DNA from: Longimicrobiaceae bacterium
GTDB taxonomy: Bacteria; Gemmatimonadota; Gemmatimonadetes; Longimicrobiales; Longimicrobiaceae
Assembly (NCBI GenBank): GCA_051005515.1
Contig: JBPCJG010000106.1
Location: forward strand, 1 to 33,920
DNA: 33,920 bases
Direction of reading: 5' to 3'
Shown piece by piece: positions 11,672 through 29,527 of the stretch (the stretch's first letter is position 1; every line of letters begins with the position of its first letter). The position numbers and the translations under genes are program-made. Under the pieces are notes generated by a model. It had not been told where the DNA came from. It ran no database searches and saw only the letters and a program-made list of their open reading frames with translations.

Positions 11672-11856
11672 AACGGTATGTGGTGGAACGGGGCAGGAGA
11701 GAAAAGGGCAATAAACGGACCTCGCAGGGGGCAACGCCTTGCGCGGGACCGGGTTGGTCTCCGGCACGGTTGCTTGCCGCCGCGCGGCACCGGCGGGTAT
11801 CTTGGCGGCGCGGTTCCGCCCGTCTCCATACCGACTCCGCGCAGAAACGTTTCCCG

Positions 11857-12666
11857 ATGCCCGAGCTCGCGCCCGCCACCCTCGAAGGGTGGTACGCGCT
11901 CCATCAGGCGTTCGACACGGACCGGACACGCGTCCGCTCCGGAGCCGACCTCGCCGCCTCCACCCGCGCTCTCTGGCAGCGGCTCGCCGCCCCCGCGGAC
12001 GGCGGCTGGAGCGCGGCGTTCCGGCTGGTGGGGGGAGGGGCCGAGTGGCTCTTCCTCCACTTCCGCCCCACCCTCGAGCAGCTCGCGGAGGTGCAGCGCT
12101 CGCTGCGCTGCTCCGATCTGGGGAGCGTGCTCATCCCCCGCTTCGACTACCTTTCGGTGACGGAGGCGGGGTTGTACCATGCCACCGCCGAAGTCGCCGC
12201 GCGCCACGCCCCCGACTCCGCGGAGTACGCGGACGAAATCGCCGAGCGGAGGGCGGCGGAGGGGGCGAGCGACCACGTCCGCAGCCGGCTCTATCCGCGG
12301 GTCCCGGATGACATGCGCTACGTTTCCTTCTACCCCATGAGCAAGCGGCGGACGGGTGCCGACAACTGGTACACGCTGCCGGTCGCGGAGCGCTCCCGGC
12401 TGATGCGCGGTCACGGCCTGACCGGCCGCCGCTACGCGGGAAGGATCTTCCAGGTCATCACGGGCTCGGTCGGTTTCGACGACTGGGAGTGGGGAGTGAC
12501 GCTCTTCGCCCGAGACCCGCTGGAGTTCAAGCGCATCGTCACCGAAATGCGCTACGACGACGCCAGCGCCCGCTACGGCGAGTTCGGCCGCTTCTTCACC
12601 GGGATCAGGATCGAGCCGCGGGAGTGGACGCGCCTGCTCGCGGCTCCCGGCGCGGCTGGCCGCTGA
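11857..12666 (+). CDS. Chlorite dismutase family protein, probably coproheme decarboxylase (HemQ/ChdC)
   Basis: ATG 11857 in track ORF 11680..12666. 'SFYPMSKRRTGADNWYTLPVAERSRLMRGHG...ITGSVGFDDWEWGVTLFARDPLEFKRIVTEMRYDDASARY' is characteristic of the Cld/HemQ family. I cannot separate Cld from HemQ by eye. Confidence 0.7.
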   Translation: MPELAPATLEGWYALHQAFDTDRTRVRSGADLAASTRALWQRLAAPADGGWSAAFRLVGGGAEWLFLHFRPTLEQLAEVQRSLRCSDLGSVLIPRFDYLSVTEAGLYHATAEVAARHAPDSAEYADEIAERRAAEGASDHVRSRLYPRVPDDMRYVSFYPMSKRRTGADNWYTLPVAERSRLMRGHGLTGRRYAGRIFQVITGSVGFDDWEWGVTLFARDPLEFKRIVTEMRYDDASARYGEFGRFFTGIRIEPREWTRLLAAPGAAGR

Positions 12667-12692
12667 GACCGGCGGGGGATACCTTGCGCGCC

Positions 12693-13478
12693 ATGCATCC
12701 CAGCCTGAGGCAGCCGTTCGCAGCAGTGGGGGGCGCCACACTCGGCGCTTTCGCCGCGATGGGGCGCTTCGGCCACTTCGTGGGGCAGAGTGGCAAGGCG
12801 CTGCTGGACGTCCCCACCTGGGCGCCGCTGCTGATCACGCAGATGCGGCGGCTGGGGGTGAACTCCATTCCCATCGCGCTCTTCATCGCTGCCTTCACCG
12901 GCATCGTGCTCGCCCTGCAGGCGTCGTACACCTTCACCGGCGCGGTGCCGCTCTACTTCGTGGGCACCCTGGTCGGCAAGACCATGATCCTGGAGCTGGG
13001 CCCGGTGCTCACCGGGCTCGCCCTTTCCGGGCGGGTCGGCGCCAACATCGCGGCGGAGCTCGGCACCATGCGCGTTTCCGAGCAGATCGACGCCCTCGAG
13101 ACGATGGCGTACAACCCGGTTTCCTACCTCGTGGTCCCGCGCATCCTCGCCGGCACTCTGATGTTCCCGCTGGTGGTGGCCTTTTCCGACGTGATCGGAG
13201 TCATCGCCGGGTGGATCACGGCGCTCAACCTGCTGGGCATGTCGAGCACGCAGTTCCTCTACGGGCTGCGCCTCTTCTACGACCCCTTCGACGTCACCTA
13301 CTCGCTCATCAAGGCCACCTCGTTCGGCTTTCTCGTCACGCTGATCGGCTGCCACCAGGGCTTCACCACCACCGGGGGAGCGGAGGGCGTCGGAATCGCG
13401 ACCACGCGGGCGGTGGTCATCGCGAGCATGCTCATCCTGGTGTTCGACGCGTTCTGGGCGGCGGTGCTGCTGAAGTGA
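12693..13478 (+). CDS. mlaE: MlaE-family ABC transporter permease
   Basis: ATG 12693 in track ORF 12489..13478. 'GPVLTGLALSGRVGANIAAELGTMRVSEQIDALETMAYNP' is the conserved MlaE/Ttg2B core. Confidence 0.85.
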   Translation: MHPSLRQPFAAVGGATLGAFAAMGRFGHFVGQSGKALLDVPTWAPLLITQMRRLGVNSIPIALFIAAFTGIVLALQASYTFTGAVPLYFVGTLVGKTMILELGPVLTGLALSGRVGANIAAELGTMRVSEQIDALETMAYNPVSYLVVPRILAGTLMFPLVVAFSDVIGVIAGWITALNLLGMSSTQFLYGLRLFYDPFDVTYSLIKATSFGFLVTLIGCHQGFTTTGGAEGVGIATTRAVVIASMLILVFDAFWAAVLLK

Positions 13479-14248
13479 GCATCGAGCTCAAGGACGTGCA
13501 CAAATCCTTTGGCGAAAAGGAGGTGCTGCGCGGCGTCTCCCTGGAGGTCGGGGACGGACAGACCTTTTCGATCATCGGCTTCAGCGGCGCCGGGAAGTCG
13601 ATGACGCTGAAACACATTGCCGGCCTGGTAGAGCCGGACTCCGGGAGCGTGATGGTGGACGGGATGGACGTCCCGCGCCTCGCCCGCGAAAAATTGTACG
13701 AGCTGCGCCGCCAGATGGGGTACGTCTTCCAGTTCGCGGCGCTCTTCGACTCCATGACGATCTTTGAAAACATCGCCATGGGGCTGCGCAAACAGGGCGG
13801 CTTCTCGGAGGAGCAGATCCGCGAGCGGGTTGCGGATTCACTGGGTCGCGTCGATCTCGACGGCTACGAGGACCGGCTGCCGTCGGAACTGTCGGGGGGT
13901 CAGCAGAAGCGGGCCGGCCTGGCGCGGGCGGTGGCCTTCCGCCCCCGCTACCTGCTCTACGACGAGCCCACCAGCGGACTGGATCCGGTCACCACCACCA
14001 CCATCGACCGGCTGATCCGGAAGATGCAGGAGGATCTAGGCGCCACCTCGCTCGTGGTCACGCACGACATGGAGAGCGCCTACCGCATCAGCGACCGGAT
14101 CGGGATGCTGTACGAGGGGAGGATCGTGGAAGCGGGCACACCCGAGGAGATCCAGCAGACGGAGAACCCGATAGTCCGCGGCTTCATCGACGGCAAACCG
14201 GAGCTGGTAGAGCAGGCGGAGAAAGAGCACGCCGGGGCGGGAGCGTGA
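13475..14248 (+). CDS. mlaF: MlaF-like ABC transporter ATP-binding protein
   Basis: GTG 13475 overlaps the mlaE stop (GTGA). Walker A 'GFSGAGKSM', signature 'LSGGQQKR', Walker B 'LLYDEPTSGLD'. Confidence 0.85.
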   Translation: MSIELKDVHKSFGEKEVLRGVSLEVGDGQTFSIIGFSGAGKSMTLKHIAGLVEPDSGSVMVDGMDVPRLAREKLYELRRQMGYVFQFAALFDSMTIFENIAMGLRKQGGFSEEQIRERVADSLGRVDLDGYEDRLPSELSGGQQKRAGLARAVAFRPRYLLYDEPTSGLDPVTTTTIDRLIRKMQEDLGATSLVVTHDMESAYRISDRIGMLYEGRIVEAGTPEEIQQTENPIVRGFIDGKPELVEQAEKEHAGAGA

Positions 14249-14301
14249 CGCGCCGGATCCACCTCACACGCATGAACGAGTCACCGCAATGAGGTTTGCC
14301 C

Positions 14302-15399
14302 ATGAAGTATAAGAATGAAGTGGTGGTCGGCGTAGTGGTGGTCCTCGGCATCATCATCGTCGCCGTCGGGGCGTACTGGCTGACGGGCCGCGCCTGGGGC
14401 GGACAGCAGCGGGAGATCGTGGCCAGCTTCCGCCAGGTGGGGCTGCTCACCGAGGGCAACCCCGTCAACTATCGCGGCGTGCAGGTAGGACGCATCGAAA
14501 AGATCCAGCTCGGGCCGCGCGGCGACGGCGTCTTCGTGACCATGTCGGTGCAGCCGGACCTGGTCTTCCCCGGCGACCCCGCCGTGTTGCTTTCCGCGCA
14601 GACGTTTTTCGGCGACTGGCAGGCGGAGCTCGTCTCGGAGGCGCAGTATCCCGAGCAGCAGTTCACCGTCACCACGTCTCGAGGGGTGCTTCCGGGCGCC
14701 GCCCTCCCCGACATCACCCAGCTCACGGCGGTTGCAGCCCGTATCGCGGGTGACCTCGAAATCCTCTCCAGCCGCGTGCAGATCGCCTTCACAGAGGAAA
14801 CCGCGGTCAAGATCCGCGAGGCGGTCGAGAACTTCGCGGAAGCCAGCCAGCAGATCGGCGGTTTCGTCGACCAGCAGACCGGGACGTACGCGCAGGTGTC
14901 GCGCAACGTGCTCGCGGCTTCGGACAACTTCCGCCGCACCACCGAAAGCGCGAACCAAGTGATGAACGAGCTGGGCCAGACCGTTTCGGGAGGCGAGGTC
15001 AAGCAGATCCTCGCGAACGCACAGCAGGCGAGCGCGAACCTCGAGCAGTTGAGCGCGCAGCTCAACTCGCCCACCACCGGCGTTCCCACCCTGATGGCCC
15101 GCGCCGACACCACGCTCGCCGCGTTCGGGCAGACGGCGCAGGTAGCGGGCGGGGTGCTGCAGAACCTCAGCACCCAGACGGACCAGCTCGGCCCGACCCT
15201 GGTGGAGGCGCGGCAGGCGATGGCGACGCTGAACCGCATCGGCACGCAGCTGGAGCAGGGGGACGGCACCCTCGGCCGCCTGATCGAGGATCCCGCGATC
15301 TACGAGGAGATGCAGCGTTCCATCACGACGCTGCGCCGGCTGATGGCGGACATCCAGGCCAACCCCGGCAAGTACGTGGGCGCTCTGCAGGTGTTCTGA
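14302..15399 (+). CDS. mlaD: MCE/MlaD-family protein with a long helical C-terminal extension
   Basis: ATG 14302 (GAGG 8 nt upstream) in track ORF 14296..15399. N-terminal TM plus MCE domain ('[24 protein letters not shown]'), followed by about 200 aa of Q/A/L-rich helical sequence. Confidence 0.8.
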
Positions 15400-15421
15400 G
15401 CCGCGGGCCGGGTCGAGCCGC

Positions 15422-16675
15422 GTGCTGGTCGTCCAGAAGTACGGCGGCAGCTCGGTGGGGACCCCCGAGCGCCTCCGCGCCGTGGCGCGGGAGGTGGTGG
15501 CGACGCGAGCGCGGGGGTGCGAGCTGGTGGTGGTGGTTTCGGCGATGGGCGACGCCACCGACGAGTTGCTGGCCCTGGCGGCGCGGGTGGCCGGCGGCGA
15601 GAGTGGAGCGCGCTGCCACCCGCGCGAGCTGGACATGCTGCTGACCGCGGGCGAGCGGATCTCGATGGCGCTGCTGGCGATCGGGATCCGCGAGGCGGGG
15701 GCGGAGGCGGTTTCGTTCACCGGGAGCCAGGCGGCGATCGTCACCGACGAAGCGCACACCGACGCCCGCATCCGCGAGATCCGGGCGGAACGTGTGCGGG
15801 AGGCGCTCGCCGCGGGGCAGATCCCCATCGTCGCGGGCTTCCAGGGCGTGAGCCGGGCCCGCGAGGTGACCACCCTCGGACGGGGAGGCTCGGACACCAC
15901 CGCCGTCGCGCTCGCCGTGGCGCTGGACGCGGATCGGTGCGAGATCCGCACCGACGTGCCGGGCGTATACACGGCGGATCCCCGCACCGTCCCTGGCGCA
16001 CGGCTGATTGACCAGATCTCGCACGAGGAAATGCTGGAGCTCGCGACCGCCGGCGCGCGCGTCGTGCATCCGCGGGCCGTCGAGATCGGCGCCCGCTTCG
16101 GGGTGGACGTCCAGGTCCGCTCCGCGCTCCCGGAAGACGCCGTGGGCGACGGCACCCTGATCACCCACACCCCCGCCCGCATGGAAGACACCCTGGTCAC
16201 GGGAATCGCGGCCTCCCCCGGCTACGCCAAGCTCGTCCAGCGCGGTTTGCCTGGTGGAATCCAGACGTTGGCGGCGCTGCTCTCGGCCCTGGCCGACGCC
16301 GGGATCAGCGTGGACATGATCACCGAATCACCCGAGCCCGGGGGAAGCGCCCAGCTCCAGTTCACGGTCGAGCAGGGGGCGCTGGAGCGGGGGCGTCAGG
16401 TCGCGTCGCAGGTCGCGGCGGGGCTGGGCGCGGGCGATCCCGAGGTGCAGGGCGGCCTTTCCCGCATCGCCCTCGTCGGCAGCGGGATGACCGGCAGGCC
16501 GGGGGTCTACGCCCGCGCCTTCGGAGCGCTTTGCGACGTGGGCGTAGAGGTGTACGGGATCTCGACCTCTTCCATCTCCATCACCCTGCTCGTCGCGGGC
16601 GACGACGAGCAGCGGGCGGTCGAGGCGCTGCACGGCGCCTTTTTCGCCGAGATCGCGCGTTCCACGGAGGGCTGA
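15422..16675 (+). CDS. lysC: Aspartate kinase
   Basis: 417 aa with a GTG start. '[11 protein letters not shown]' kinase motif and C-terminal ACT domains. Confidence 0.9.
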
Positions 16676-17656
16676 ATGCACGTCGCGGTGCTCGGCGCGA
16701 CCGGCGCGGTGGGGCGGACGATGCTGCGGGTGCTCGAAGAACGGGCGCTGCCGGTGGAGCGGCTGACGCTGCTCGCCTCGCCCCGCTCCGCGGGGACGCA
16801 CCTCGCCTTCGGCGGGCGGGAGTGGGAGGTGTCCGCGCCGCGGGAAGGCTCCTTCCGCGGCGTCGACGTGGCGCTCTTTTCCGCCGGCGCCGATCGCTCG
16901 CGCGAGTGGGCGCCGCGGGCGGCAGAGGAAGGAGCGCTCGTGGTCGACAACTCCTCCGCCTGGCGCATGGATCCGGAGGTCCCGCTGGTGGTCCCCGAGG
17001 TGAACGGCGCGGCGGCGCTGAACCGCCCGAAGGGGATCGTCGCCAACCCCAACTGCTCCACCATCCAGATGGTGGTTGCGCTGGACGCGCTGCACCGCGT
17101 CGCCGGCCTGGAGCGGGTGGTCGCCACCACGCTGCAGTCGGTGAGCGGAGCCGGAGAGCGGGGACGAGCCGCGCTCCTCCGGCAGCGCGAAACGCCCTGT
17201 GACGACTGCACCCCCTTCCTCCGGGCGATCCACGGCAACGTGGTCCCCTGGATCGGTGAGGCCGACGGACAGGGGTGGACGGAGGAAGAGCGCAAGATGA
17301 CGGCGGAGACGCGCAAGATCCTCGCGCTCCCCGAGCTACCGGTCGCGAGCACCTGCGTGCGCGTGCCGGTGGAGGTGGGCCACGCGGTGCAGCTCGCGGT
17401 GGAAACCTCGCGCCCGCTCTCCGCGGCGGAGGCTTGCGCCGCGCTCGCGGCGCGGCCGGGGATCCGCGTGGCCCACGCCGCGGCGGACTTCCCGACGCCG
17501 CTCGAGGTGGCGGGGCGCGACGAGGTGTTCGTCGGCAGGGTGCGCGCCGATCCGCACCTGCCGCGGACGCTGCACCTCTGGGTGGTCGCCGACAACCTGC
17601 GCAAGGGAGCGGCTACGAACGCGGTGCAGATCGTCGAGGAGGAGCTCGGGAAATGA
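16676..17656 (+). CDS. asd: Aspartate-semialdehyde dehydrogenase
   Basis: 326 aa. 'VAVLGATGAVG' Rossmann motif and active-site 'ANPNCSTIQM'. Directly abuts the lysC stop. Confidence 0.9.
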   Translation: MHVAVLGATGAVGRTMLRVLEERALPVERLTLLASPRSAGTHLAFGGREWEVSAPREGSFRGVDVALFSAGADRSREWAPRAAEEGALVVDNSSAWRMDPEVPLVVPEVNGAAALNRPKGIVANPNCSTIQMVVALDALHRVAGLERVVATTLQSVSGAGERGRAALLRQRETPCDDCTPFLRAIHGNVVPWIGEADGQGWTEEERKMTAETRKILALPELPVASTCVRVPVEVGHAVQLAVETSRPLSAAEACAALAARPGIRVAHAAADFPTPLEVAGRDEVFVGRVRADPHLPRTLHLWVVADNLRKGAATNAVQIVEEELGK

Positions 17657-18138
17657 CCCCGCGCCGCACCGTCCGGACGCGCCCGCCCAGCCGCATCGAA
17701 ACCAGCGCCGGCGGAGTCGTTTTCCGCTGCCGCGGCGGGATCGTCCGCGTGCTGTTGGTGCGCGATCGGTACGGACATTGGGGTCTCCCGAAGGGACATG
17801 TAGAAGCGGGCGAAACCGCCTCCGAGGCGGCGCTCCGGGAGGTCCGCGAGGAAACCGGCCTTTCCGAGCTGGCCATGGGTCGCGAACTCGACACCATCGA
17901 CTGGTTCTTTCGCTTCGGCGGGCAGACGATCCACAAGTACTGCCACTTCTTTCTCGTGGAGGCCCTCCGCGGAGAGGCGGTACCCCAGCCGGAGGAAGGC
18001 GTCTCGGAGTGCGTCTGGCTGTCGATCCCGGAGGCGATCGAAGCCATCGCGTACGAAAACGCCCGGGAGGTCCTCCGCCTGGCGGCGGAGGACCTCCCGG
18101 GTGTGTCAGCTTCGGCCGGACCGGGCCCTGCTCAGTAG
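17653..18138 (+). CDS. NUDIX hydrolase
   Basis: ATG 17653 overlaps the asd stop (ATGA). Nudix box 'GHVEAGETASEAALREVREETGL'. Confidence 0.8.
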   Translation: MTPRRTVRTRPPSRIETSAGGVVFRCRGGIVRVLLVRDRYGHWGLPKGHVEAGETASEAALREVREETGLSELAMGRELDTIDWFFRFGGQTIHKYCHFFLVEALRGEAVPQPEEGVSECVWLSIPEAIEAIAYENAREVLRLAAEDLPGVSASAGPGPAQ

Positions 18139-18389
18139 TTCTCCGCTTCGGATCCTTCCCCGCCGAGCACCTTCTTTCCCAGCCAGATCCCCGCCGGAAT
18201 GGCGACCGCTGCGGCCGCCAGACCCTTGGCGGCAGTGCGCAGTGGCGAGCGCCTGCGGCGCGGCCTGCCGACCATCTCCGCCGCCCAGTCGATCCCCTTG
18301 ATCACCGCCGCCTTTTTCGGATTCGTGATCGCGAACATGGCCTTGGGCGCCTTCAGCCACGCAGCCGTCTTCAGTGCGCGTTTCAGCAT
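18132..18389 (-). CDS. Small basic hypothetical protein with one C-terminal hydrophobic segment
   Basis: 85-aa ORF with high third-position GC, Lys/Arg-rich, 'GLAAAAVAIPAGIWLG' segment. Its 3' end overlaps the NUDIX gene by 7 nt (convergent). No family recognised. Confidence 0.4.
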   Translation of the reverse strand: MLKRALKTAAWLKAPKAMFAITNPKKAAVIKGIDWAAEMVGRPRRRRSPLRTAAKGLAAAAVAIPAGIWLGKKVLGGEGSEAENY

Positions 18390-18584
18390 CCTGTCCTCTC
18401 CTCGTGTAAGCGTCGTCTAAAAGTATCCGGTTCGATACGCAGGAAGCGTGCGCGCAGGCGGCTGATCGCGGCGCGCATTTTGTTTCGACCGGCATGAAGG
18501 TTGCTCCTCCACCACCACCCCGACCGGCTCCCCTCCGCGGGGGCTTCCGCAGCAGCTCTCAGGCGCTCACCAGAACCGGGAGAG

Positions 18585-18857
18585 ATGACAGAGATCACGG
18601 CGGAACTCGAGGCGGTCGAGACATGGCGCGGGGAGTGCTTTTCACGCCTGGATCGCCTGGCGTTCGCGCTCGAAATGGAAGCGGCGGAGCTGGTGTCGGC
18701 GGAGCGTCTGGCCGACGCGGAGTCACTCCAGGCGACGCGGCTGGGCGTGCGCCTCGCGCAGCGGCTGGTTTCCGGCGTTCCCTCCCCCGAGGTGGACGGC
18801 CGGCTTGGTCGGTGGGAAGAGGCCTATCTGAGCCGTCTCGCTCCGGCCGCTTCGTGA
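18585..18857 (+). CDS. Hypothetical 90-aa helical protein, translationally coupled to the methyltransferase
   Basis: ATG 18585 (GGGAGAG upstream) in track ORF 18501..18857. Its stop overlaps the GTG start of the next gene (GTGA). Glu/Ala/Leu-rich. No family recognised. Confidence 0.45.
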   Translation: MTEITAELEAVETWRGECFSRLDRLAFALEMEAAELVSAERLADAESLQATRLGVRLAQRLVSGVPSPEVDGRLGRWEEAYLSRLAPAAS

Positions 18858-19567
18858 ACGCCCCCACCATCGCCCGGCGCATCTCGGAGCTGGGTCCGTG
18901 GTTCCACGACCTGGAAGTGCGGGGGGTCCGCACGGCCCCCGATCATCCGCTCGGCGACTTCCTGCGCGACCTCTGGCGGCAGGTCGCAACCGCGTTTCCC
19001 GCGGACATGACCGGGCTGACGGCGCTCGACATCGGCTGCAACGCGGGCTTCTATTCGCAGCAGCTCTCCCGCCGCGGCGCCACCGTCACGGCGATCGATC
19101 ACGATCCGCACTACCTGGCGCAGGCGCGTTTCGCGGCCAGCGCGGCGGGGGCGGAGATCGAGTTTCTGGAGCTCGACGTCTACGACGTCGGCTCGCTCGG
19201 CCGGCGCTTCGACTACGTGCTCTTCATGGGGGTGTTCTACCACCTTCGCCATCCGCTCCTCGCGCTCGACCGGGTGGCGGCGCTGCCGCGGCGCCGGCTC
19301 GTCTTCCAGAGCATGCTGCGCGGCTGCGGCGGGACGCTGCCGCTGGAATCCGACTACCCCTTCGAGGAGCGGGCGATCTTCGAGCACCCCCGCTTCCCCG
19401 CGATGTACTTCGTGGAAGGAGAGTACGCGAATGATCCCACCAACTGGTGGATCCCCAACCAGGCGGGGATGGAGGCGATGCTCCGCTCCGCCGGCTTGCG
19501 GATCGATGAACGCATCGGCGGAGAAGTCTACATCTGCTCCCCCGCAGACATGGAGGTGGCGGCATAG
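18854..19567 (+). CDS. Class I SAM-dependent methyltransferase, DUF1698/CmoB-like (resembles the TIGR04290 family from memory)
   Basis: GTG 18854 in track ORF 18494..19567 gives 237 aa. 'GPWFHDLEVRG' N-terminal motif, SAM motif I 'ALDIGCNAGFYS', 'YVLFMGVFYHLRHPL', and C-terminal 'NWWIPN...MLRSAGL'. Confidence 0.75.
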   Translation: MNAPTIARRISELGPWFHDLEVRGVRTAPDHPLGDFLRDLWRQVATAFPADMTGLTALDIGCNAGFYSQQLSRRGATVTAIDHDPHYLAQARFAASAAGAEIEFLELDVYDVGSLGRRFDYVLFMGVFYHLRHPLLALDRVAALPRRRLVFQSMLRGCGGTLPLESDYPFEERAIFEHPRFPAMYFVEGEYANDPTNWWIPNQAGMEAMLRSAGLRIDERIGGEVYICSPADMEVAA

Positions 19568-20430
19568 CGCTCCACCACCCGGCTCGCGAACCAGACGAAC
19601 TCTTCGAGCGCTACCGGTGGGCTGGTATGGTCGGCCCGGACCCCCAGCGAGGGCGGCGTGAAGCAGAGGGTCACGCACACCTCGAAGGGTTCGAGAGCCG
19701 CCATGATCGTGTCGAACCATTCCCATGCGCCGGGCAGGTAGCTTTCCGCCCAGCTCAGGCCGGTCCGCACCCGGCGCACGCCCAGCCGCTGCAGCCAGTC
19801 GGCGGCCAGGGTGAGCGACGCTTCGTCTCGCCACTGAAACCACTGGCAGATCCCGAATTCGGGGGAGAACTCCTCGACGGCACGCTTCGGAGTACCGTCC
19901 CAGCGCAGCAACCCGAAGTGGAAGTGCCGGAAGTAGGAGCTTCCCTCCGCCTGCTTGTGGCGGGTGGTGGCTTCGTGCGCGGGGGCGAGGTCGAGAAGGG
20001 AATACCAGAAGACCTCTTCATCGCCCAGGATCCGGAGACTTTCGCGCAGCCCCCACGCCGCGAACTCCTCGTTCGCGAAGGAGGAGACGCCGGTCTCGGT
20101 GATCCATACCGGCATCCCGAATTCGGCGCGGATCGCGGCCAGCTTATGCGGCCACTCCCGCAGCGGCCAGAGATTCCAGTCGAGCGGGAAGCCGTGAACG
20201 GCGAGCACGTCCACCGCCTCGAGCACTCCCATGACCCGCATGCGGCGCAGAAAGCTCGGGTCGATGGGAGAGATGCCGCCGAGCACGAGCGGCAGCTCGG
20301 TACCCGACTCACGCAGGGCGGCGGCGGTTTCGCGCACCAGCGCGGCGTACCGGTCCCAGCCCGGATCGAGGGTAAAGTCCCAGTGAGAAAGGTTGTTCGG
20401 TTCGTTCCAGAGCTTTACGGAAGTGATCAC
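19528..20430 (-). CDS. Clan GH-A-like glycoside hydrolase (TIM barrel) with its motifs in circularly permuted order
   Basis: 300-aa ORF with a GTG start. 'LWNEPN' (strand-4 acid/base motif) at residues 7-12 and 'WITETG' (strand-7 nucleophile motif) near residue 110. A C-terminal-type 'FGLLRWDGTPKRAVEEF' sits near residue 180. It is followed by N-terminal-type sequence 'FGICQW...LQRLGVRRVRTGLSWAE...FEVCVTLCFTPP...FASRVVERY'. Confidence 0.65.
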   Translation of the reverse strand: MITSVKLWNEPNNLSHWDFTLDPGWDRYAALVRETAAALRESGTELPLVLGGISPIDPSFLRRMRVMGVLEAVDVLAVHGFPLDWNLWPLREWPHKLAAIRAEFGMPVWITETGVSSFANEEFAAWGLRESLRILGDEEVFWYSLLDLAPAHEATTRHKQAEGSSYFRHFHFGLLRWDGTPKRAVEEFSPEFGICQWFQWRDEASLTLAADWLQRLGVRRVRTGLSWAESYLPGAWEWFDTIMAALEPFEVCVTLCFTPPSLGVRADHTSPPVALEEFVWFASRVVERYAATSMSAGEQM

Positions 20431-20447
20431 TTCGGCGGAGGTGCGGC

Positions 20448-21575
20448 TTGAGCGGACGGAGCGTCCTGGTGACCGGCGGAGCGGGGTTCGTGGGGAGCCA
20501 CCTGGTCGACGCCCTGCTCACGCGGGGAGACCGGGTGCGGATCCTCGACAACCTCGACCCGCAAGTTCACGGCCCCCAGCGGCGGGAGCCGGCCTGGCTC
20601 CCGGACGAGGCGGAGCTGCTGCGGGGCGACGTGCGCGACCCCGACGCAGTGGATCGCGCGGTGCGCGACGTGGACGTGATCTTTCATCTGGCGGCGGCGG
20701 TCGGCGTGGGGCAGTCGATGTACCGCATCGCCGAGTACACCGCGGTCAACACCCTGGGGACGGCGAATCTGCTCCAGGCCCTGGTGGATCGGGAGATCGA
20801 ACCCGAGCGTCTGGTCGTAGCCAGCTCCATGTCGATCTACGGCGAAGGCCGCTACGCGCGTCCCGACGGTAGAAATCCATCGGTCGCGCGACGCTCGCCC
20901 GAACAGCTACGGGCGCACGACTGGGAAGTGCGCGACCGCGATGGCACACCGTTGGAGCCGCTCCCCACCGACGAGGCGAAGCCGCTGGAGCCCGCTTCGA
21001 TCTACGCCCTCACCAAGGCAGACCAGGAGAAGATGGTGCTGCAGATCGGCGACGCGTACGGGATCCCGTCCGTGGCGCTGCGCTTCTTCAACATCTACGG
21101 GCCCCGGCAGTCGCTTTCCAACCCGTACACCGGCGTGGCGGCGATCTTCAGCTCCCGTCTGCTCAACGGCCAGCCGCCGCTGATCTTCGAGGATGGGGAA
21201 CAGCGGCGGGACTTCGTCTCCGTCCACGACGTGGTGAGCGCTCTGCTGCTGGCGGGTGAAGAGGGCGGTGCGGTGGGGGAGGCGCTGAACGTCGGGTCCG
21301 GGAGCGCGGTTTCCGTGCGTCAGGTAGCCGAAACGCTCGCGGAGGTGCTGGGCGCGGCTTTGCAGCCGGAGGTGACGGGCCGCTACCGGGTGGGCGACAT
21401 CCGCAACTGCTTTGCCGACATCACCCGGGCGCGCGAGCGGATCGGGTATGCACCCAGGGTCTCCTTCCCCGCCGGGATGGCGGAGCTGGTGGAGTGGCTA
21501 CAGGAGCAGGAACGGCCGCAGGATGGCCTCAGGGAACACGCCGCGGAGCTGGCCGCCCGCGGTCTCACCATCTAA
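20448..21575 (+). CDS. NAD-dependent epimerase/dehydratase (extended SDR) with an insertion before the catalytic YxxxK
   Basis: 375 aa. TTG start with GGAGG 6 nt upstream. 'VLVTGGAGFVGSHL' and catalytic 'YALTK'. About 40-aa insert 'GEGRYARPDGRNPSVARRSPEQLRAHDWEVRDRDGTPLEPLP'. Confidence 0.8.
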   Translation: MSGRSVLVTGGAGFVGSHLVDALLTRGDRVRILDNLDPQVHGPQRREPAWLPDEAELLRGDVRDPDAVDRAVRDVDVIFHLAAAVGVGQSMYRIAEYTAVNTLGTANLLQALVDREIEPERLVVASSMSIYGEGRYARPDGRNPSVARRSPEQLRAHDWEVRDRDGTPLEPLPTDEAKPLEPASIYALTKADQEKMVLQIGDAYGIPSVALRFFNIYGPRQSLSNPYTGVAAIFSSRLLNGQPPLIFEDGEQRRDFVSVHDVVSALLLAGEEGGAVGEALNVGSGSAVSVRQVAETLAEVLGAALQPEVTGRYRVGDIRNCFADITRARERIGYAPRVSFPAGMAELVEWLQEQERPQDGLREHAAELAARGLTI

Positions 21576-21597
21576 TCGTCTTAAACGGGGAGTGGAG

Positions 21598-22674
21598 ATG
21601 AGGGGGGGTTACACGCTGATCACGGGAGGCGCCGGCTTCATCGGCTGCAACCTCGCCGACGCCATCCTTGCGGACGGCGGAGCGGTGGTGGTCGCCGACA
21701 ACTTCTCGCGGCCGGGAGTGCGCAGCAACGCCGCCTGGCTGCGGAACCGGCACGGAGGCCGGGTGCGCATCGAGAACGCGGACGTGCGCGACGCCGCGCG
21801 AGTAGCCCAGCTCGTCGCCGGGGCGCGCGAGATCTTTCATCTGGCCGCGCAGGTCGCCGTGACCACTTCGTTCGAAGATCCCGTGCTCGACCTGCACACC
21901 AACCTGCTCGGCACCTTCAACCTGCTCGAAGCCGCGCGCGCCCTGCCGTCCCCACCGCCCCTGCTCTTCACCTCTACCAACAAGGTGTACGGCGAGCTTT
22001 CCGACCTCCCCGTCCAAAAGAATGGCGGGGCGTACGAGTACGCCGACGGCGGCGACGGAGTTTCCGAGTCGGCCCCGCTCGACTTCCACTCCCCCTACGG
22101 CTGCTCCAAGGGCGCCGCCGACCAGTACGTCCGCGACTACGCGCGCGTCTTCGGCCTGCGCACCCTGGTCTTCCGCATGAGCTGCATCTACGGAACGCGT
22201 CAGCTCGGGACCGAAGACCAGGGGTGGGTAGCGCACTTCGCCCGCTCGCTCCTCGTGGGGCGGCCGATCACCGTGTACGGAGACGGCTGTCAGGTGCGGG
22301 ACATTCTGTGGATCGGCGACCTGGTCGCCGCGCTGCGCACCGCCATGGCCAATGTCGAGCGGCTTTCCGGAAGCGTCTTCAACATCGGTGGCGGGAGCGG
22401 GAACGCGGTTTCGGTGCGGCGCGTGATCGACCGCTTGCAGGAGATCACCGGCCGTGAGGTGCCGGTGGAAGCGGACGCCTGGCGGCCGGGCGACCAGCGC
22501 ATCTACGTGTCCGACACCTCCCACGCCCGGGACGCGTTCGGCTGGCGCCCTCGGATGCCGTGGGAGAAGGGGCTGGAGCGGCTGGTGGAATGGTTGAACG
22601 AGACGGAGCTGCCGGCACTCCACTCCCCCGCGCCCGCGCGGCGGGAGTCGCGTCCGGTCCTGGCGGTGGGATGA
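21598..22674 (+). CDS. NAD-dependent epimerase, CDP-paratose/tyvelose 2-epimerase-like extended SDR
   Basis: ATG 21598 (GGGGAGTGGAG upstream) in track ORF 21412..22674. 'LITGGAGFIGCNL', 'SPYGCSKGAADQYVRDYARVFGL' and 'RMSCIYGTRQLGTEDQGWVAHF' resemble RfbE-type 2-epimerases. Confidence 0.75.
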   Translation: MRGGYTLITGGAGFIGCNLADAILADGGAVVVADNFSRPGVRSNAAWLRNRHGGRVRIENADVRDAARVAQLVAGAREIFHLAAQVAVTTSFEDPVLDLHTNLLGTFNLLEAARALPSPPPLLFTSTNKVYGELSDLPVQKNGGAYEYADGGDGVSESAPLDFHSPYGCSKGAADQYVRDYARVFGLRTLVFRMSCIYGTRQLGTEDQGWVAHFARSLLVGRPITVYGDGCQVRDILWIGDLVAALRTAMANVERLSGSVFNIGGGSGNAVSVRRVIDRLQEITGREVPVEADAWRPGDQRIYVSDTSHARDAFGWRPRMPWEKGLERLVEWLNETELPALHSPAPARRESRPVLAVG

Positions 22675-23654
22675 GCGCGAGGGGGGTCGCACAGCGGACG
22701 ATGCGGGCCGCGGTCCTCGCCTCCCCTGGCTGCCTGGAGCTGCGGGAGCGGCCGATCCCCGCGCCGACGTCCGGCGAGGTGCTCGTGCGGTTGGAGGGAT
22801 CGGGGGTGTGCGCGTCGAACCTGGCCGTGTGGGCGGGGCAGCCGTGGTTCGACTACCCGCTCCCGGCCGGCGCCCCGGGGCACGAGGGGTGGGGTGTCGT
22901 GGACGCCGTCGGATCCGCGGTGGCGGAAGTGGCGGAAGGGGACCGCGTGGCGCTCCTTTCGCAGAGCGCGTATGCCGAATACGACATGGTGTCGGCCGAC
23001 CAGATCGTGCCGCTGCCTCCCGGGCTCGACGGCGCCGCCTTTCCGGGAGAGCCGCTCGGCTGCGCGATGAACATCTTCCGCCGCAGCGGCGTCGCCGCGG
23101 GACAGACCATCGCCGTCGTCGGGATCGGCTTTCTAGGCGCGCTGCTCACGCAGCTCGCCAGTGGCGTCGGTGCGCGCGTGATCGCCGTCTCCCGGCGCGA
23201 CTTATCGCTTTCGGTAGGCACCGCGATGGGCGCTGCAGCGGCAGTACCGCTCCAGGATCCCTCGTCGACCGTGGACGAGGTGCGCGAGCTCACGGGCGGA
23301 GAGCTCTGCGACGTGGTCATCGAGGCGACCGGCAAGCAATCGCCGCTCGACCTGGCTGCGAAATTGACCCGCGTCCGCGGTCGGCTGGTCATCGCCGGCT
23401 ACCACCAGGACGGGCCGCGGCAGGTGGACATGCAGCTCTGGAACTGGCGGGGTCTGGACGTGATCAACGCGCACGAACGCGACCCGGCAGTCTACCGGCA
23501 GGGGATGCGCGAAGCCGTCGAAGCCATCGTATCCGGACGGCTCGACCCGGCGCTGCTCTATACGCACCGCTACCCCCTCGAACGGCTGGACGAGGCGCTC
23601 GACGCGACCCGCGACCGCCCCGACGGCTTTCTCAAGGCGCTGGTGACGGTGTGA
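22671..23654 (+). CDS. Zinc-type alcohol dehydrogenase / MDR-family oxidoreductase
   Basis: ATG 22671 overlaps the previous stop (ATGA). 'GSGVCASN', 'GHEGWGVV', and Rossmann 'VVGIGFLGALL'. Confidence 0.8.
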   Translation: MSARGVAQRTMRAAVLASPGCLELRERPIPAPTSGEVLVRLEGSGVCASNLAVWAGQPWFDYPLPAGAPGHEGWGVVDAVGSAVAEVAEGDRVALLSQSAYAEYDMVSADQIVPLPPGLDGAAFPGEPLGCAMNIFRRSGVAAGQTIAVVGIGFLGALLTQLASGVGARVIAVSRRDLSLSVGTAMGAAAAVPLQDPSSTVDEVRELTGGELCDVVIEATGKQSPLDLAAKLTRVRGRLVIAGYHQDGPRQVDMQLWNWRGLDVINAHERDPAVYRQGMREAVEAIVSGRLDPALLYTHRYPLERLDEALDATRDRPDGFLKALVTV

Positions 23655-24688
23655 ACGCCGGGGCGGCTGCGCCCGCGTCCGCGGCAGGAACCGCCACCCC
23701 GCCCACCCGTCCCCGCCTGGCGTTCCTCGGCGTCGGGTGGATCGGGCGCCACCGCCTGCAAGCGGTGGCGGAGAGCGGGGTCGCCGAGATCGTGGCGATC
23801 GCCGACCCGGACGCAGCCGCGGCCGCCGCGGCGAGCGACGTCGCCCCCGACGCCGCACCCTGCGAGAACCTCGAGGCGTTGCTCGCCACGGAGCCGGACG
23901 GCGTGGTGATCGCGACGCCGAACGCGCTGCACGCCGGGCAGGCGCTGCGGGCGCTCGCAGCGGGAGCCGCGGTCTTCTGCCAGAAGCCGCTCGGGCGCAG
24001 CGCCGCGGAGACGCGCGGCGTCGTGGACGCCGCGCGCGCCGCGGACCGCCTGCTCGAGGTGGACCTGTCGTACCGGCACACCGGGGCGGCGCGGGCGGTC
24101 CGCGAGTTGGTCGCGGACGGCGCGATCGGCCGTGTCTACGCCGCGCGGCTGGTCTTCCATAACGCCTACGGCCCCGACAAGGCGTGGTTCCGCCACCCGC
24201 GTCTGGCCGGCGGAGGGTGCGTCATGGACCTGGGGGTGCACCTGGTGGACCTGGCGCTCTGGACCCTCGGCTTCCCCCCAGTTGTCGGCGTCTCCAGCCG
24301 CCGCTTCGCCGGGGGCGAGCGGCTGGCACACGGCGACGGGCGCGCCGAGGACTTCGCCACCGCGCGGCTCGATCTGGACACGGGTGCCGTGGTAGAGGTC
24401 GCCTGCTCCTGGGATCTGCACGCGGGAAGGGACGCGACCATCGCCGCGGATTTCCACGGGTCGGAGGGCGGCGCATCCCTCCACAATCTGCGCGGCTCGT
24501 TCTACGACTTCGCCGCGGAGCGCTTCCGCGGCACCTCCGCCGAGCCGCTCGCCGAGCCGCCCGACGACTGGGGAGGACGCGCGATCGTCCGCTGGGTCGA
24601 GCGCGTCGCCGCGGGCGCGGCTTTCGATGCAGCGGCGACGGAGCTGGTGGCGGTCGCCGAGGTGCTGGACGCCATTCTGGGGAGATGA
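23651..24688 (+). CDS. Gfo/Idh/MocA-family NAD(P)-dependent oxidoreductase
   Basis: GTG 23651 overlaps the previous stop (GTGA). 'LAFLGVGWIGRHR' Rossmann motif and 'VFCQKPL' (EKP-type motif). 345 aa. Confidence 0.75.
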   Translation: MNAGAAAPASAAGTATPPTRPRLAFLGVGWIGRHRLQAVAESGVAEIVAIADPDAAAAAAASDVAPDAAPCENLEALLATEPDGVVIATPNALHAGQALRALAAGAAVFCQKPLGRSAAETRGVVDAARAADRLLEVDLSYRHTGAARAVRELVADGAIGRVYAARLVFHNAYGPDKAWFRHPRLAGGGCVMDLGVHLVDLALWTLGFPPVVGVSSRRFAGGERLAHGDGRAEDFATARLDLDTGAVVEVACSWDLHAGRDATIAADFHGSEGGASLHNLRGSFYDFAAERFRGTSAEPLAEPPDDWGGRAIVRWVERVAAGAAFDAAATELVAVAEVLDAILGR

Positions 24689-25800
24689 GGGTCTTCCTTA
24701 CGGCGGACACGGTAGGCGGCGTCTGGGACCACGTCGCGACGCTCGCCGGCGAGCTGCGCTCCGCCGGCGACGAGGTGCTGGTCGCCGTAGTGGGCGAGCG
24801 GCGCGACGACCGCTTGGCGGCGCTGGCGCCGGGGGTGGAGGTCACCTCCCGCTCCTACCGGCTGGAGTGGATGCAGGGGGCCGCGGCGGATGTCGCCGCC
24901 GCCGGGGAGTGGCTCGCCCACACCGCCCGGCTCTGGTGCGCCGACCTCGTGCACCTCAACCAGTACGCGTACGCGGTGCACGACTTCGGTGCACCCGTGC
25001 TGGTCGCGGGGCACAGCGACGTGCTTTCCTGGTGGCGCGAAACGCTGGGTCGGGCCGCTCCCGCGGAGTGGCGGGAGTACGGCGGCTGGGTGCGGGCGGG
25101 GCTCGCCGCCGCCGACTCTGTCGTCACGCCGACGTTGTATCAGTCGCGTCTGCTCCTGCGGGAGTACGGGCGCGCCGCCGACCAGGTGATCCACAACGGC
25201 ATCCTGCCCGTCGAGGGGGCCGGTCCTGCCGCCGACGGAAGCGACGGGGTGCTGGTGGTGTGCGCGTGCCGGGCCTGGGACCGCGCCAAGGGCGCGGAGG
25301 TGCTCGACCGCGCCGTCGGCCGCCTCGGCGGCGCCGGCGTGGAGGCGCACCTGCTTGGCGCCACCGTGGCGCCGTCCGGCGAGCGCTACGAGCCGCTGCA
25401 CCTGACGTCGCACGACCGCGTCGAGCGCGCCGAGGTGGACGCGTGGCTGTCGCGGGCGAGCGTGTACGTAGCTCCCTCGCTCTACGAGCCGTTCGGGCTG
25501 GCGCCGCTGGAGGCGGCGTTCGCCGGCTGCGCGCTGCTGCTCTCGGACATCGGCTCCTTTCGGGAGCTATGGGACGGCTGCGCGCGCTTCTTCCCCGCCG
25601 GCAGTGACGCGGCGCTGGCCGCCGCGCTCACCGAGCTGCACGAAGACCCGTCGTCGCGCGACCGGATGGCCGGCTCGGCCCGGCGCCGTGCCGAGCGCCG
25701 CTACACCGCCGACCGTATGGCCGCAGACTACCGTGTGCTGTACGCCGAGCTGGCGGTGAGCGGATCGCCCGCCGCCAGCGCCACCGACGTGCGCGCGTGA
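24685..25800 (+). CDS. GT4-family (GT-B, retaining-type) glycosyltransferase
   Basis: ATG 24685 overlaps the previous stop (ATGA). 'VYVAPSLYEPFGLAPLEAAFAGCALL' E-x7-E motif. No TM segment. Confidence 0.8.
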   Translation: MRVFLTADTVGGVWDHVATLAGELRSAGDEVLVAVVGERRDDRLAALAPGVEVTSRSYRLEWMQGAAADVAAAGEWLAHTARLWCADLVHLNQYAYAVHDFGAPVLVAGHSDVLSWWRETLGRAAPAEWREYGGWVRAGLAAADSVVTPTLYQSRLLLREYGRAADQVIHNGILPVEGAGPAADGSDGVLVVCACRAWDRAKGAEVLDRAVGRLGGAGVEAHLLGATVAPSGERYEPLHLTSHDRVERAEVDAWLSRASVYVAPSLYEPFGLAPLEAAFAGCALLLSDIGSFRELWDGCARFFPAGSDAALAAALTELHEDPSSRDRMAGSARRRAERRYTADRMAADYRVLYAELAVSGSPAASATDVRA

Positions 25801-26939
25801 ACTTCGCCTGCTTCGTCCACAGCGCCGTTTCTGACTGGAACCACGGCAACGCGCACTTCCTGCGCGGGCTGCTCAGCGCGCTCGCCGCGCGCGGCCACAC
25901 CGTCACCGCCTGGGAGCCGCGCCTCCCCTGGTCCGCCCGCAACCTGGTCAAGGAGCACGGCTTCGCGCCGGTGGTGGAGTTCGCCCGCGCCTACCCCGAG
26001 ATCGGCGTGCGCAGCTACGACCCCGCCGACGAGGAATTGCTGGAGCGGCTGGAGGACGCCACCCGGACTGCAAACGTGGTGCTGGTCCACGAGTGGAACT
26101 CCCCCCGGCTGGTCGGCGCCCTCGGTCATCTCCGCCGGCGCGGCGCCGGCTGGACGCTGCTCTTCCACGACACCCACCACCGTCCCTGGAGCGATCCGGC
26201 GGCGATCGCGCGATTCAACCTGTCCGCCTACGACGGGGTGCTCGCCTTCGGCGAGGTGCTGCGGCGGATCTACCTCGAGCGCTTCGGAACACACCGGGCC
26301 TGGACGCTGCACGAGGCAGCGGACACGCGCCGCTTCCGGCCGCTGGAGCGCCCCGAGAGCGACGACGTGGTGTGGATCGGCAATTGGGGGGATGCGGAGC
26401 GATCGGTCGAGCTGGAGCGCTTCTGGCTCGCCGCCGCGCGCGCCCACCCGGAGCTGCGCTGGGCCGCGTACGGCGTGCGCTACCCCGGGGAAGCGGTCGA
26501 GGCGCTGGCAAAGGCGGGAGTAGACTACCGCGGCTGGGCCGCCTCACTGGAGGTCCCGGAGATCTTTGCCCGGAGTCGAGTCACCCTGCACATTCCCCGG
26601 CAGGCGTACGTGGAAGGGCTCCCGGGGATCCCGACGATCCGGGTCTTCGAGGCACTCGCCTGCGGCATCCCACTGGTGTCGGCGCCCTGGTCCGACGCCG
26701 AGGATCTGTTCCGCCCGGGCGACTACGCGGTCGGGGAAACACCGGCCGAGCTGCGCAGCGAGATCCTCCGTTTGTTGGGTGACAGGGAAGCAGCCGCAGA
26801 GCAGGCGGCGCGGGGGCTCGAATCCGTGCTCGCCCGACACACCTGCGACCACCGCGCCGGCGAGCTGCTGGACATCGTCGCCGAGCTGGGGACTTGCGAC
26901 AGCAGCGCACCCCCCGAGCGCGTCGCGGCATGGAGCTGA
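25797..26939 (+). CDS. CgeB-like glycosyltransferase-family protein, paralogue 1
   Basis: 380 aa. GTG start overlaps the previous stop (GTGA). N-terminal 'SAVSDWNHGNAHFLRGLLSALAARGHTVT'. C-terminal 'TIRVFEALACGIPLVSAPWSDAEDLF'. Confidence 0.65.
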   Translation: MNFACFVHSAVSDWNHGNAHFLRGLLSALAARGHTVTAWEPRLPWSARNLVKEHGFAPVVEFARAYPEIGVRSYDPADEELLERLEDATRTANVVLVHEWNSPRLVGALGHLRRRGAGWTLLFHDTHHRPWSDPAAIARFNLSAYDGVLAFGEVLRRIYLERFGTHRAWTLHEAADTRRFRPLERPESDDVVWIGNWGDAERSVELERFWLAAARAHPELRWAAYGVRYPGEAVEALAKAGVDYRGWAASLEVPEIFARSRVTLHIPRQAYVEGLPGIPTIRVFEALACGIPLVSAPWSDAEDLFRPGDYAVGETPAELRSEILRLLGDREAAAEQAARGLESVLARHTCDHRAGELLDIVAELGTCDSSAPPERVAAWS

Positions 26940-29125: not shown

Positions 29126-29527
29126 ATGGCGCAGCGGCGGTATGCCTCCTATGCTTCAAGCGTGTCCCTTCTCTTGTTTCTGCTCGCGCTGCTGGGGCTG
29201 GCGGCGCTGCTCGTCCGGCTCGGGCGCAGCCTACTCCGCCTGCTCCTGGCGAGCGCCCGCAGCACGACGGCCGACGGCATGGCCGACCTCAGCGCGCGCC
29301 GCGGTGATTTGACGCTGCTGGCGGAGCGGGACGAGCAGGCGCGGCTCCTCGCCAGCGCGCGCCGCCTCGAGTGGTCTCGCGCGGCGCTCTGGGCAGCGCT
29401 GCTGATCCTGCCGCCGCTGTTCGGCGCCGCGCTCTACGTCTACCCTGCGGCGGTCCTCCTCTGGCTGCTCCCGCGAAACCGGCGCACGAACGGAACACCC
29501 CGGCAACCTCCCCCTCACCTCCCATGA
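29126..29527 (+). CDS. Hypothetical small membrane protein (2-3 TM segments)
   Basis: ATG 29126 in track ORF 29036..29527 gives 133 aa. 'VSLLLFLLALLGLAALLV' and 'AALWAALLILPPLFGAALYVYPAAVLLWLL'. Its stop overlaps the transporter ATG (ATGA). Confidence 0.5.
   Translation: MAQRRYASYASSVSLLLFLLALLGLAALLVRLGRSLLRLLLASARSTTADGMADLSARRGDLTLLAERDEQARLLASARRLEWSRAALWAALLILPPLFGAALYVYPAAVLLWLLPRNRRTNGTPRQPPPHLP

Follow-up and report, generated by a model that had tools for sequence, protein, structure and literature searches.

Probable natural circular permutation of a clan GH-A-like (beta/alpha)8 barrel within a conserved glycosylation gene cassette

A stretch of 33,920 nucleotides (nt) from a Longimicrobiaceae bacterium of the Gemmatimonadota (GenBank assembly GCA_051005515.1, contig JBPCJG010000106.1, positions 1 to 33,920 of the forward strand; hereafter the window) contains a gene for a protein of 300 amino acids (aa) that resembles the (beta/alpha)8 barrels of glycoside hydrolase (GH) clan GH-A, with strands 4-8 placed ahead of strands 1-3. 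In this clan the NEP motif ends strand 4, the nucleophile Glu ends strand 7, and strands 1-3 precede NEP. The protein is very likely a natural circular permutant whose permutation is family-wide and under selection, and the permutation belongs to a large, old family and is not an event in this genome. With considerably less assurance, we lean towards regarding it as the first recognised natural circular permutation in clan GH-A, with a GH70-like break between beta3 and beta4, and towards seeing the permuted and the normally ordered (canonical) forms as interchangeable parts of one widespread cytoplasmic glycosylation cassette that includes those of Sinorhizobium meliloti pSymB, Rhizobium etli p42b and Azospirillum.

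Order of the two barrel modules

Comparison of the native protein with the canonical homologue P0134 by BLAST returned two high-scoring segment pairs (HSPs) in swapped order, with query residues 2-176 aligned to residues 138-322 of P0134 (E 3e-32) and query residues 191-292 aligned to residues 31-137 (E 1e-18). The two contiguous segments abut in the interior of P0134 at residues 137/138, i.e., at the alpha3/beta4 boundary, and are joined at its termini through a linker at query residues 188-191, with residues 292-300 and 1-2 forming the new termini. When residues 188-300 were moved to the front, a single collinear HSP was obtained (4-289 on 31-322, 169 bits, E 1e-54). At the level of sequence comparison, swapped HSPs that become collinear upon de-permutation are the textbook signature of a circular permutation, and the swapped-order resemblance is far above chance. 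The proposal of the initial annotation, made from the letters of the window, that strands 4-8 are encoded ahead of strands 1-3 is borne out by these swapped segments and their exact abutment at alpha3/beta4.

Profile comparisons gave the same picture for each module. The module of residues 1-187 matched the canonical family with a probability of 100% (hhalign, E 7e-50), and the beta1-3 module by itself matched the N-termini of canonical representatives, 42 in number, with 35-89 bits. For a census of module order, two module hidden Markov models were mapped on the 150 best representatives of 50%-identity clusters taken from an exhaustive representative search. Both modules were significant in the order beta4-8 then beta1-3 in 51 of these 150 and in the order beta1-3 then beta4-8 in 42, while six beta1-3-only and 46 beta4-8-only representatives had a single module, most of them resembling contig-end fragments. 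Non-permuted relatives do exist, as many normally ordered proteins of ~310-350 aa came up in the representative search.

Single-sequence scans with Pfam and NCBIfam yielded sub-threshold matches to GH53 and Glyco_hydro_cc or nothing, a result that is consistent with a permutation and too weak to carry it alone. Where GH-A models of Pfam matched the window protein, residues ~3-140 fell on the C-terminal halves of the models (GH53 133-247 of 340, GH5 124-261 of 272, GH113 176-248 of 289, and Glyco_hydro_cc 135-178 of 237), all as weak single-sequence matches. The correspondence of the second part of the protein to an N-terminal half came from family profiles and canonical homologues. De-permuting single sequences gained no full-length Pfam matches, the beta1-3 module having diverged too far from the curated models, and the de-permutation succeeded with profiles and with the close canonical family only.

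Relationship to clan GH-A and PslG

Two alignments of the permuted family served as profiles: A1, comprising 41 members of 65-98% identity, and A2, comprising 24 members re-aligned after residues 187-300 had been moved to the front. The best match of A1 among solved structures was PslG from Pseudomonas aeruginosa (GH39, clan GH-A; 5BX9/4ZN2), a remote one at 35 bits and E ~1e-7. A1 aligned to PslG (5BX9) in two stretches in reversed order, 4-153 on 133-303 and 190-291 on 19-130, the second being weak, and these stretches meet at the alpha3/beta4 boundary of PslG (130/133). The de-permuted A2 profile aligned in one collinear stretch (5-266 on 21-302), and GH39 xylosidases match A2 across the artificial junction. 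The profile of the canonical sister family is itself collinear with PslG (15-303 on 29-327, E 5.9e-17) and also matches GH39 beta-xylosidases, GH1 and GH53; both the permuted and the canonical families are therefore anchored in clan GH-A. The initial annotation had named, as a finding that would speak against a permutation, an orthologue family that is uniformly in this order and lies outside GH-A. The order is indeed uniform in the permuted family, but the family is GH-A-like.

The catalytic motifs agree with this placement. N9-E10-P11 follows strand 4-7 of the structural model described below, which is the first strand of the chain and beta4 by homology, and it aligns with the NEP of PslG, GH53 and GH5, while E112 in TETG ends model strand 108-113 and aligns with the nucleophile position of PslG, i.e., the Glu of 'STEWG' (chain residue 250, counted here as E276). 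A PslG E165Q/E276Q double mutant is inactive (PMC4928890). PslG and the permuted protein also have in common that the gene lies within a polysaccharide-biosynthesis cluster or a comparable setting of biosynthetic genes. They differ in that PslG has normal strand order, ~440 aa, an additional C-terminal domain and a membrane anchor, whereas the permuted protein has 300 aa in one domain, is permuted and is without signal or anchor.

The Pfam model of GH39 (PF01229) found no match in the window protein and matched one of the 41 A1 members (E 0.0036). Known GH39 structures carry an accessory beta-sandwich or C-terminal domain besides the barrel; in the model of the permuted protein the barrel uses all 300 aa and no extra domain is predicted. 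Because the Pfam threshold for GH39 is not reached and the accessory domain is absent, we would place the permuted family in clan GH-A with no family assignment, and it should not be filed as GH39. Amidohydro_2 (PF04909) was considered as the fold and rejected, its match being local and restricted to two generic beta-alpha units (residues ~194-273 on profile 80-161). This match on the beta1-beta3 module recurs in 22 of the 41 members, with scores near the cut-off of 26.4 bits or under it (27.9 bits at most, in P0025, P0064 and P0089), and was judged to reflect generic beta-alpha similarity among triosephosphate isomerase (TIM) barrels.

Predicted structure

An AlphaFold2 model built from A1 (predicted local distance difference test, pLDDT, 81.7; predicted template modelling score, pTM, 0.84) is a single domain in which eight strands alternate with helices, as in one GH-A barrel. 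Strands are predicted at residues 4-7, 48-53, 75-78, 108-113, 139-143, 193-195, 220-226 and 250-256, followed by a terminal helix at 275-289. The chain runs from beta4 to beta8, through a short linker, and on to beta1 to beta3 and alpha3, which departs from the canonical beta1-beta8 order. The permuted order would alter the connectivity and leave the fold and the active-site geometry unchanged.

Foldseek, which depends on chain order, returned only TIM barrels from the PDB. Full-length matches were generic, with a poor root-mean-square deviation and template modelling (TM) scores of 0.35-0.48, and GH-A structures (GH10 and GH2) could be aligned across no more than 154-190 columns, roughly half of the model. 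Such half-length alignments are as expected and would fit a permutant, and they fall short of proof.

Conservation and distribution of the permuted form

The permuted protein has more than 7550 homologues, and the best 120 of these are nearly all of ~300 aa (a few up to 389) with query coverage of at least 91%. At least 595 species-representative genomes encode the permuted form, with residues 1 to ~290 matched at 52-74% identity, and they represent the Gemmatimonadota, Alpha-, Beta-, Gamma- and Deltaproteobacteria, Verrucomicrobiota, Chloroflexota, Acidobacteriota, Armatimonadota and Bacteroidota, including the finished chromosomes of Sorangium and Archangium. Matches were also found on 146 plasmids. 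Most of these, including S. meliloti pSymB, carry the permuted form at 50-56% identity, and the plasmid matches of ~30% identity (Rhizobium, Agrobacterium and Tistrella) represent the canonical form fused to a short-chain dehydrogenase/reductase (SDR). For the study of gene neighbourhoods, 80 genome loci were kept of the at least 595 confirmed, giving 82 permuted loci together with two plasmid records; the frame is uninterrupted across the junction, with the same order and start, in all 82.

The start of the protein, 'M/L/V-ITSxKxWNEPNN', is conserved in A1, where 84 columns are invariant, including N9-E10-P11, H79, T111-E112-T113-G114, W142-Y143 and R222. From established knowledge of the clan, these invariant residues would correspond to the usual GH-A active-site set. 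The permuted family also has a near-invariant motif, P-x-x-E-A-T-T-R-H-K-x-A-E-G-S-S-Y-x-R-H-F-H-F (residues 150-171, nt 19918-19983, pLDDT <50), which is absent from the canonical family and from PslG and might serve as a flexible lid or bind phosphate.

Two longer database entries, P0123 (468 aa) and P0168 (505 aa), contain the permuted gene read through from an upstream methyltransferase or in shifted frames, with sequence that degenerates past the junction. Frameshifts or mis-calling of metagenome genes would seem to account for both, and true fusions would not.

The canonical sister family

The canonical sister family, exemplified by P0134, P0151, P0143 and the N-terminal domain of WP_011427519.1 from R. 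etli CFN42 p42b, shares ~33% identity with the permuted family over both modules and has the motifs GICQWFH, LRTGxSWA, TPPS, WNEPNN, HGFP, WITExG, YWY and HxGL in common with it. Its members run in the order beta1-8, lack the TTRHK...RHFHF loop that is invariant in the permuted family, and are often fused to the SDR2 of the cassette described below, giving proteins of 590-690 aa. They also share cassette partners with the permuted form, namely SDR1, SDR2, a GT4 glycosyltransferase, three further glycosyltransferases and the TIGR04290 methyltransferase, although not all are cassette-linked, since the canonical P0151 sits outside the cassette.

In the fusion proteins (WP_011427519.1, at L087:9983-12022, as well as P0155, P0157, P0160, P0166 and P0167) a canonical GH-A domain of ~310 aa forms the N-terminus, and the metagenomic P0155 has the same layout as the R. 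etli GH-SDR2 fusion. Such proteins are annotated as 'NAD-dependent epimerase/dehydratase', the only label that RefSeq gives the R. etli fusion, and their GH domain is left unannotated. The stand-alone canonical P0136 is named 'CDP-paratose 2-epimerase' in IMG, a name that was presumably transferred from SDR-fused proteins.

A simple, unrooted neighbour-joining tree was calculated from canonical proteins and de-permuted proteins of the permuted family. The two forms split at one branch in 195 of 200 neighbour-joining bootstraps, and mean identity is 53% within the permuted form, 42% within the canonical form and 33% between them. This separation at a single branch fits one permutation event from a normally ordered sister family followed by wide spread, which is what seems to have happened as far as the sequences tell.

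Gene layout and cassette

The features of the gene and its cassette are collected in Table 1. The minus strand is that of the open reading frame (ORF) in the ORF listing, the initial annotation having given none; every motif string that it quoted is present at the expected position, and the junction that it had put at ~19860-19880 agrees with 'AVEE-FSPE-FGICQW' (residues 187-191, nt 19858-19872). The limits of the linker follow from the canonical C-terminal match, which stops at query residue 176-187, and from the N-terminal match, which starts at 191. GC content by codon position is 0.65/0.49/0.85 in the permuted gene, a real-gene signature in a window of 70% GC.

Table 1. Coordinates of the permuted gene, its modules and motifs, and the neighbouring cassette genes in the window
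Feature	Position (nt)	Strand	Details
Permuted GH-A-like (beta/alpha)8 gene	19528-20430	minus	GTG start at 20430, stop 19528-19530, 300 aa
Residues 1-187, module equivalent to canonical beta4-alpha4...beta8-alpha8	19870-20430	minus	BLAST, profile, hhalign, model strands
MITSVKLWNEPNNLSHWDF			Residues 1-19; contains NEP (residues 9-11, nt 20398-20406)
N9-E10-P11, predicted acid/base Glu, end of first strand (canonical beta4)	20398-20406	minus	Invariance and alignment to PslG WNEPN
WITETG			Residues 109-114; E112 at nt 20095-20097
T111-E112-T113-G114, predicted nucleophile Glu, end of fourth strand (canonical beta7)	20089-20100	minus	Invariance and alignment to PslG 'STEWG'
FGLLRWDGTPKRAVEEF			Residues 172-188
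Residues 188-191 (FSPE), linker from ancestral C-terminus (after alpha8) to ancestral N-terminus (before beta1)	19858-19869	minus	
Residues 192-291, module equivalent to beta1-alpha1-beta2-alpha2-beta3-alpha3	19558-19857	minus	BLAST, module scores, model strands
FGICQW			Residues 192-197
LGVRRVRTGLSWAE			Residues 216-229
FEVCVTLCFTPP			Residues 249-260
FASRVVERYA			Residues 281-290
Residues 292-300, variable C-terminal tail after alpha3 (new C-terminus)	19531-19557	minus	pLDDT <50; length varies in family alignment
TIGR04290-family S-adenosylmethionine (SAM) methyltransferase	18869-19567 (start approximate)	plus	323 bits against cut-off 300
Rest of cassette	20448-29097	plus	Divergent from permuted gene; Pfam and NCBIfam scans
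SDR1	20448-21575	plus	
SDR2	~21607-22674	plus	
Zn-dehydrogenase	~22560-23654	plus	
Gfo/Idh/MocA oxidoreductase	~23711-24688	plus	
GT4 glycosyltransferase	~24700-25800	plus	
Three Glyco_trans_1_2 glycosyltransferases	25797-26939, 26894-28009, 27994-29097	plus	

Only 17 nt (20431-20447) separate the GTG start of the permuted gene from the divergent TTG start of SDR1 at 20448. A Shine-Dalgarno motif, GGAGG at ~20436-20440, serves SDR1, and because none lies upstream of its own start, the permuted gene may be leaderless or have its promoter within SDR1. At the other end the gene is convergent with the methyltransferase, the 3' ends overlapping by 40 nt (19528-19567). A TIGR04290 methyltransferase stands next to the permuted gene in 59 of the 80 genome loci; in most other phyla it immediately precedes the permuted gene on the same strand, its stop codon often overlapping the start codon that follows, and because of this the Gemmatimonadota arrangement is a local inversion of the methyltransferase/permuted-gene pair. 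The methyltransferase ORF can be extended by ~125 codons upstream of the TIGR04290 match (18494-18868), and this Pro/Arg/Gly-rich extension is probably untranslated. Before it lies a 239-aa ORF (17778-18497) with no family match, which may not be a gene.

The linkage of these cassette genes with the permuted gene holds across phyla, the conserved core being the GT4 gene and the three Glyco_trans_1_2 genes. The latter are consecutive paralogues with a C-terminal Glyco_trans_1_2 domain (PF13524), 28-36% mutual identity and no NCBIfam model. On R. etli p42b the same cassette occurs with the canonical GH domain fused to the N-terminus of SDR2 (WP_011427519.1). The version on plasmid p2 of Azospirillum brasilense, in which the start of the permuted gene overlaps the upstream methyltransferase by 4 nt, adds a myo-inositol-1-phosphate synthase, a histidine phosphatase and a TIGR04295 B12/radical-SAM enzyme, and that on S. 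meliloti pSymB adds an inositol-3-phosphate synthase and a phosphatase, without the radical-SAM enzyme. Pfam and NCBIfam scans found no TIGR04295 gene in the window, where the Zn-dehydrogenase and the Gfo/Idh/MocA oxidoreductase occupy that position; the variant with the TIGR04295 gene is presumably the one known as 'rhizo-twelve'. An optional protein of 580 aa without a Pfam match occurs in 25 of 88 loci, including A. brasilense p2 (L081:11972-13726) and pSymB, and is absent from the window. By eye, its C-terminal part has a kinase-like 'HxDxHxxN...D' look.

The window cassette is an island between ordinary housekeeping genes, with genes for a nitronate-monooxygenase-like protein, a chlorite-dismutase-family protein, MlaE, MlaD, aspartokinase and aspartate-semialdehyde dehydrogenase on its left flank (10190-17656) and a prokaryotic cation-chloride cotransporter on its right (29371-31788). 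Full-text literature searches, which included TIGR04290, TIGR04295, and pSymB together with inositol-phosphate synthase and in which subscription journals are poorly covered, returned nothing on this cassette.

Proposed function

In the model we propose, the chain N-beta4-alpha4-...-beta8-alpha8-[4-residue linker]-beta1-alpha1-beta2-alpha2-beta3-alpha3-C would close into an ordinary eight-stranded barrel. With the new termini in the alpha3/beta4 loop, E10 would come to lie ten residues from the N-terminus and E112 on the fourth strand, and the two would act as acid/base and nucleophile, the equivalents of PslG E165 and E276, in a retaining glycosidase or transglycosidase that uses the usual double-displacement mechanism. 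The substrate may be a glycoside that the co-inherited cassette makes or modifies through its pair of SDR sugar-nucleotide enzymes, its two oxidoreductases, its four glycosyltransferases and the TIGR04290 methyltransferase. On the strength of its sequence, the permuted protein is probably an active glycosidase or transglycosidase. It is predicted to be cytoplasmic, because no signal peptide or hydrophobic segment was found in it. As the canonical form of R. etli and others fills the same cassette slot, fused to SDR2, the two forms are suggested to do the same job; that the substrate is an inositol-glycoside, as the accessory genes suggest, is speculation.

In IMG and RefSeq, thousands of members bear the name 'beta-xylosidase' (COG3664-type), e.g., A. 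brasilense WP_137142491.1. This name is unsupported and is a homology transfer from GH39 xylosidases. Neither Pfam nor NCBIfam has a model that covers the permuted family, literature searches found no experimental support for beta-xylosidase activity, and none of the product names met for the family mentions the permutation.

Alternative explanations

An assembly misjoin or local rearrangement artefact, in which normal or tandem GH fragments were joined in the wrong order, can practically be dismissed. The gene is tightly wedged between the SDR1 start and the convergent methyltransferase, which could resemble a rearranged spot, but the same order, start and junction are found in the 82 permuted loci, from unrelated phyla and including finished chromosomes and plasmids, and a 98% identical copy was assembled independently on three contigs. 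It is just as implausible that the gene is a decaying remnant of a tandem duplication, i.e., a non-functional pseudogene made of the C-terminal part of one copy and the N-terminal part of the next. Although such a remnant is the intermediate expected in a duplication model and would show beta4-8 followed by beta1-3, the invariant columns of A1 include both catalytic Glu, whole-length identity is 52-59% across phyla, GC at third codon positions has a coding signature, length is held at ~300 aa, leftovers of deleted halves flank none of the 82 loci, and the conservation pattern excludes a ratio of nonsynonymous to synonymous substitutions (dN/dS) of ~1. With order, start position and both catalytic Glu conserved family-wide, the initial preference for a functional permutant over debris or a misjoin is upheld. 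As to the origin of this permutant, duplication followed by trimming at both ends would be the default model, which is kept because it is analogous to GH70 (PMC4919382). Splitting of the gene and re-joining of its parts in reverse order, or some other recombination, would suit the absence of tandem-duplicated (beta1-3/beta4-8/beta1-3) or split intermediates among the 150 representatives, the absence of remnants of a duplicated copy beside the gene in the 82 permuted loci, and the existence of the single-module representatives (6 and 46), most of which are contig-end-like. We consider such an origin unlikely, as duplication and trimming is the accepted route for GH70 and needs no non-functional stage (PMC4919382), and missing intermediates are expected under either model after an old event.

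A serious rival concerns function and accepts the permuted fold, but takes the protein to be no hydrolase, its GH-like site having been re-purposed in a transglycosylase, in a sugar-binding or scaffold subunit, or in an enzyme that works with SDR2 on an intermediate, either a nucleotide-sugar or an inositol phosphate. Many bacteria carry the canonical form as a covalent fusion with an SDR, the gene always accompanies biosynthetic and not degradative enzymes, its product is predicted to be cytoplasmic, and the invariant basic loop T155-T156-R157-H158-K159...R168-H169-F170-H171, which neither the canonical family nor PslG possesses, would agree with a phosphorylated ligand. Yet both catalytic Glu are invariant, as are the other residues of the GH-A signature, and this argues that the glycosyl-transfer chemistry has been kept; moreover, glycoside hydrolases are normal in polysaccharide-biosynthesis clusters, PslG being one of them (PMC9075953), so that we hold a re-purposed, non-hydrolytic role to be improbable on balance. 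Several points nonetheless weigh against a permuted GH-A glycosidase. Characterised GH families are only remotely similar (35 bits to PslG), and the scores of Pfam GH models for the window protein, as for most members, stay under the gathering cut-offs. The closed barrel is a predicted model built from rather similar sequences (65-98% identity), and because the model has low confidence in two invariant loops (11-20 and 154-167), the surroundings of the active site may differ from those of known GH-A enzymes. Homology is the basis on which glycosidase activity, a retaining mechanism and the substrate are proposed, and the window cassette is without the inositol-phosphate genes that are present elsewhere.

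Comparison with GH70 and implications

The closest precedent comes from clan GH-H, where the (beta/alpha)8 barrel of the GH70 glucansucrases is circularly permuted relative to that of the GH13 alpha-amylases, the classic natural case among glycoside hydrolases; the GH70 order is alpha3-beta4-...-beta8-alpha8-beta1-...-beta3 (PMC4919382). In both cases the break lies between beta3 and beta4, before alpha3 in GH70 and after alpha3, one helix later, in the permuted family, and in both cases non-permuted members coexist with permuted ones (GtfC in GH70, the canonical sister family here). GH70 differs in belonging to another clan, with other catalytic residues and alpha-glucan synthesis chemistry, and in consisting of large, secreted, multidomain proteins; the two permutations are independent events. 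No account of a natural permutation in clan GH-A came up in full-text searches, although these cover subscription journals poorly and an earlier account may exist.

Natural permutations of TIM barrels are rare textbook cases, with GH70 versus GH13 as the standard one among glycoside hydrolases. The permuted family would be the second such case and an independent one, in the largest clan of glycoside hydrolases, with nearly the same break and with both forms extant, apparently doing the same job in the same cassette. For annotation, it means that order-dependent tools such as Pfam and Foldseek see half of the domain and that thousands of 'beta-xylosidase' entries are weakly grounded, and it flags a conserved cassette of 10-12 genes in plant-associated and soil bacteria. 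We expect the finding to be of moderate to high interest to structural enzymologists and annotators of carbohydrate-active enzymes. The pair of permuted and canonical proteins forms a clean comparative system for folding, for evolution by duplication and trimming, and for enzyme engineering. If our interpretation is true, it would offer a genetically tractable natural system in which to ask why TIM barrels tolerate or prefer that break, and it would also provide a handle on the product of the cassette.

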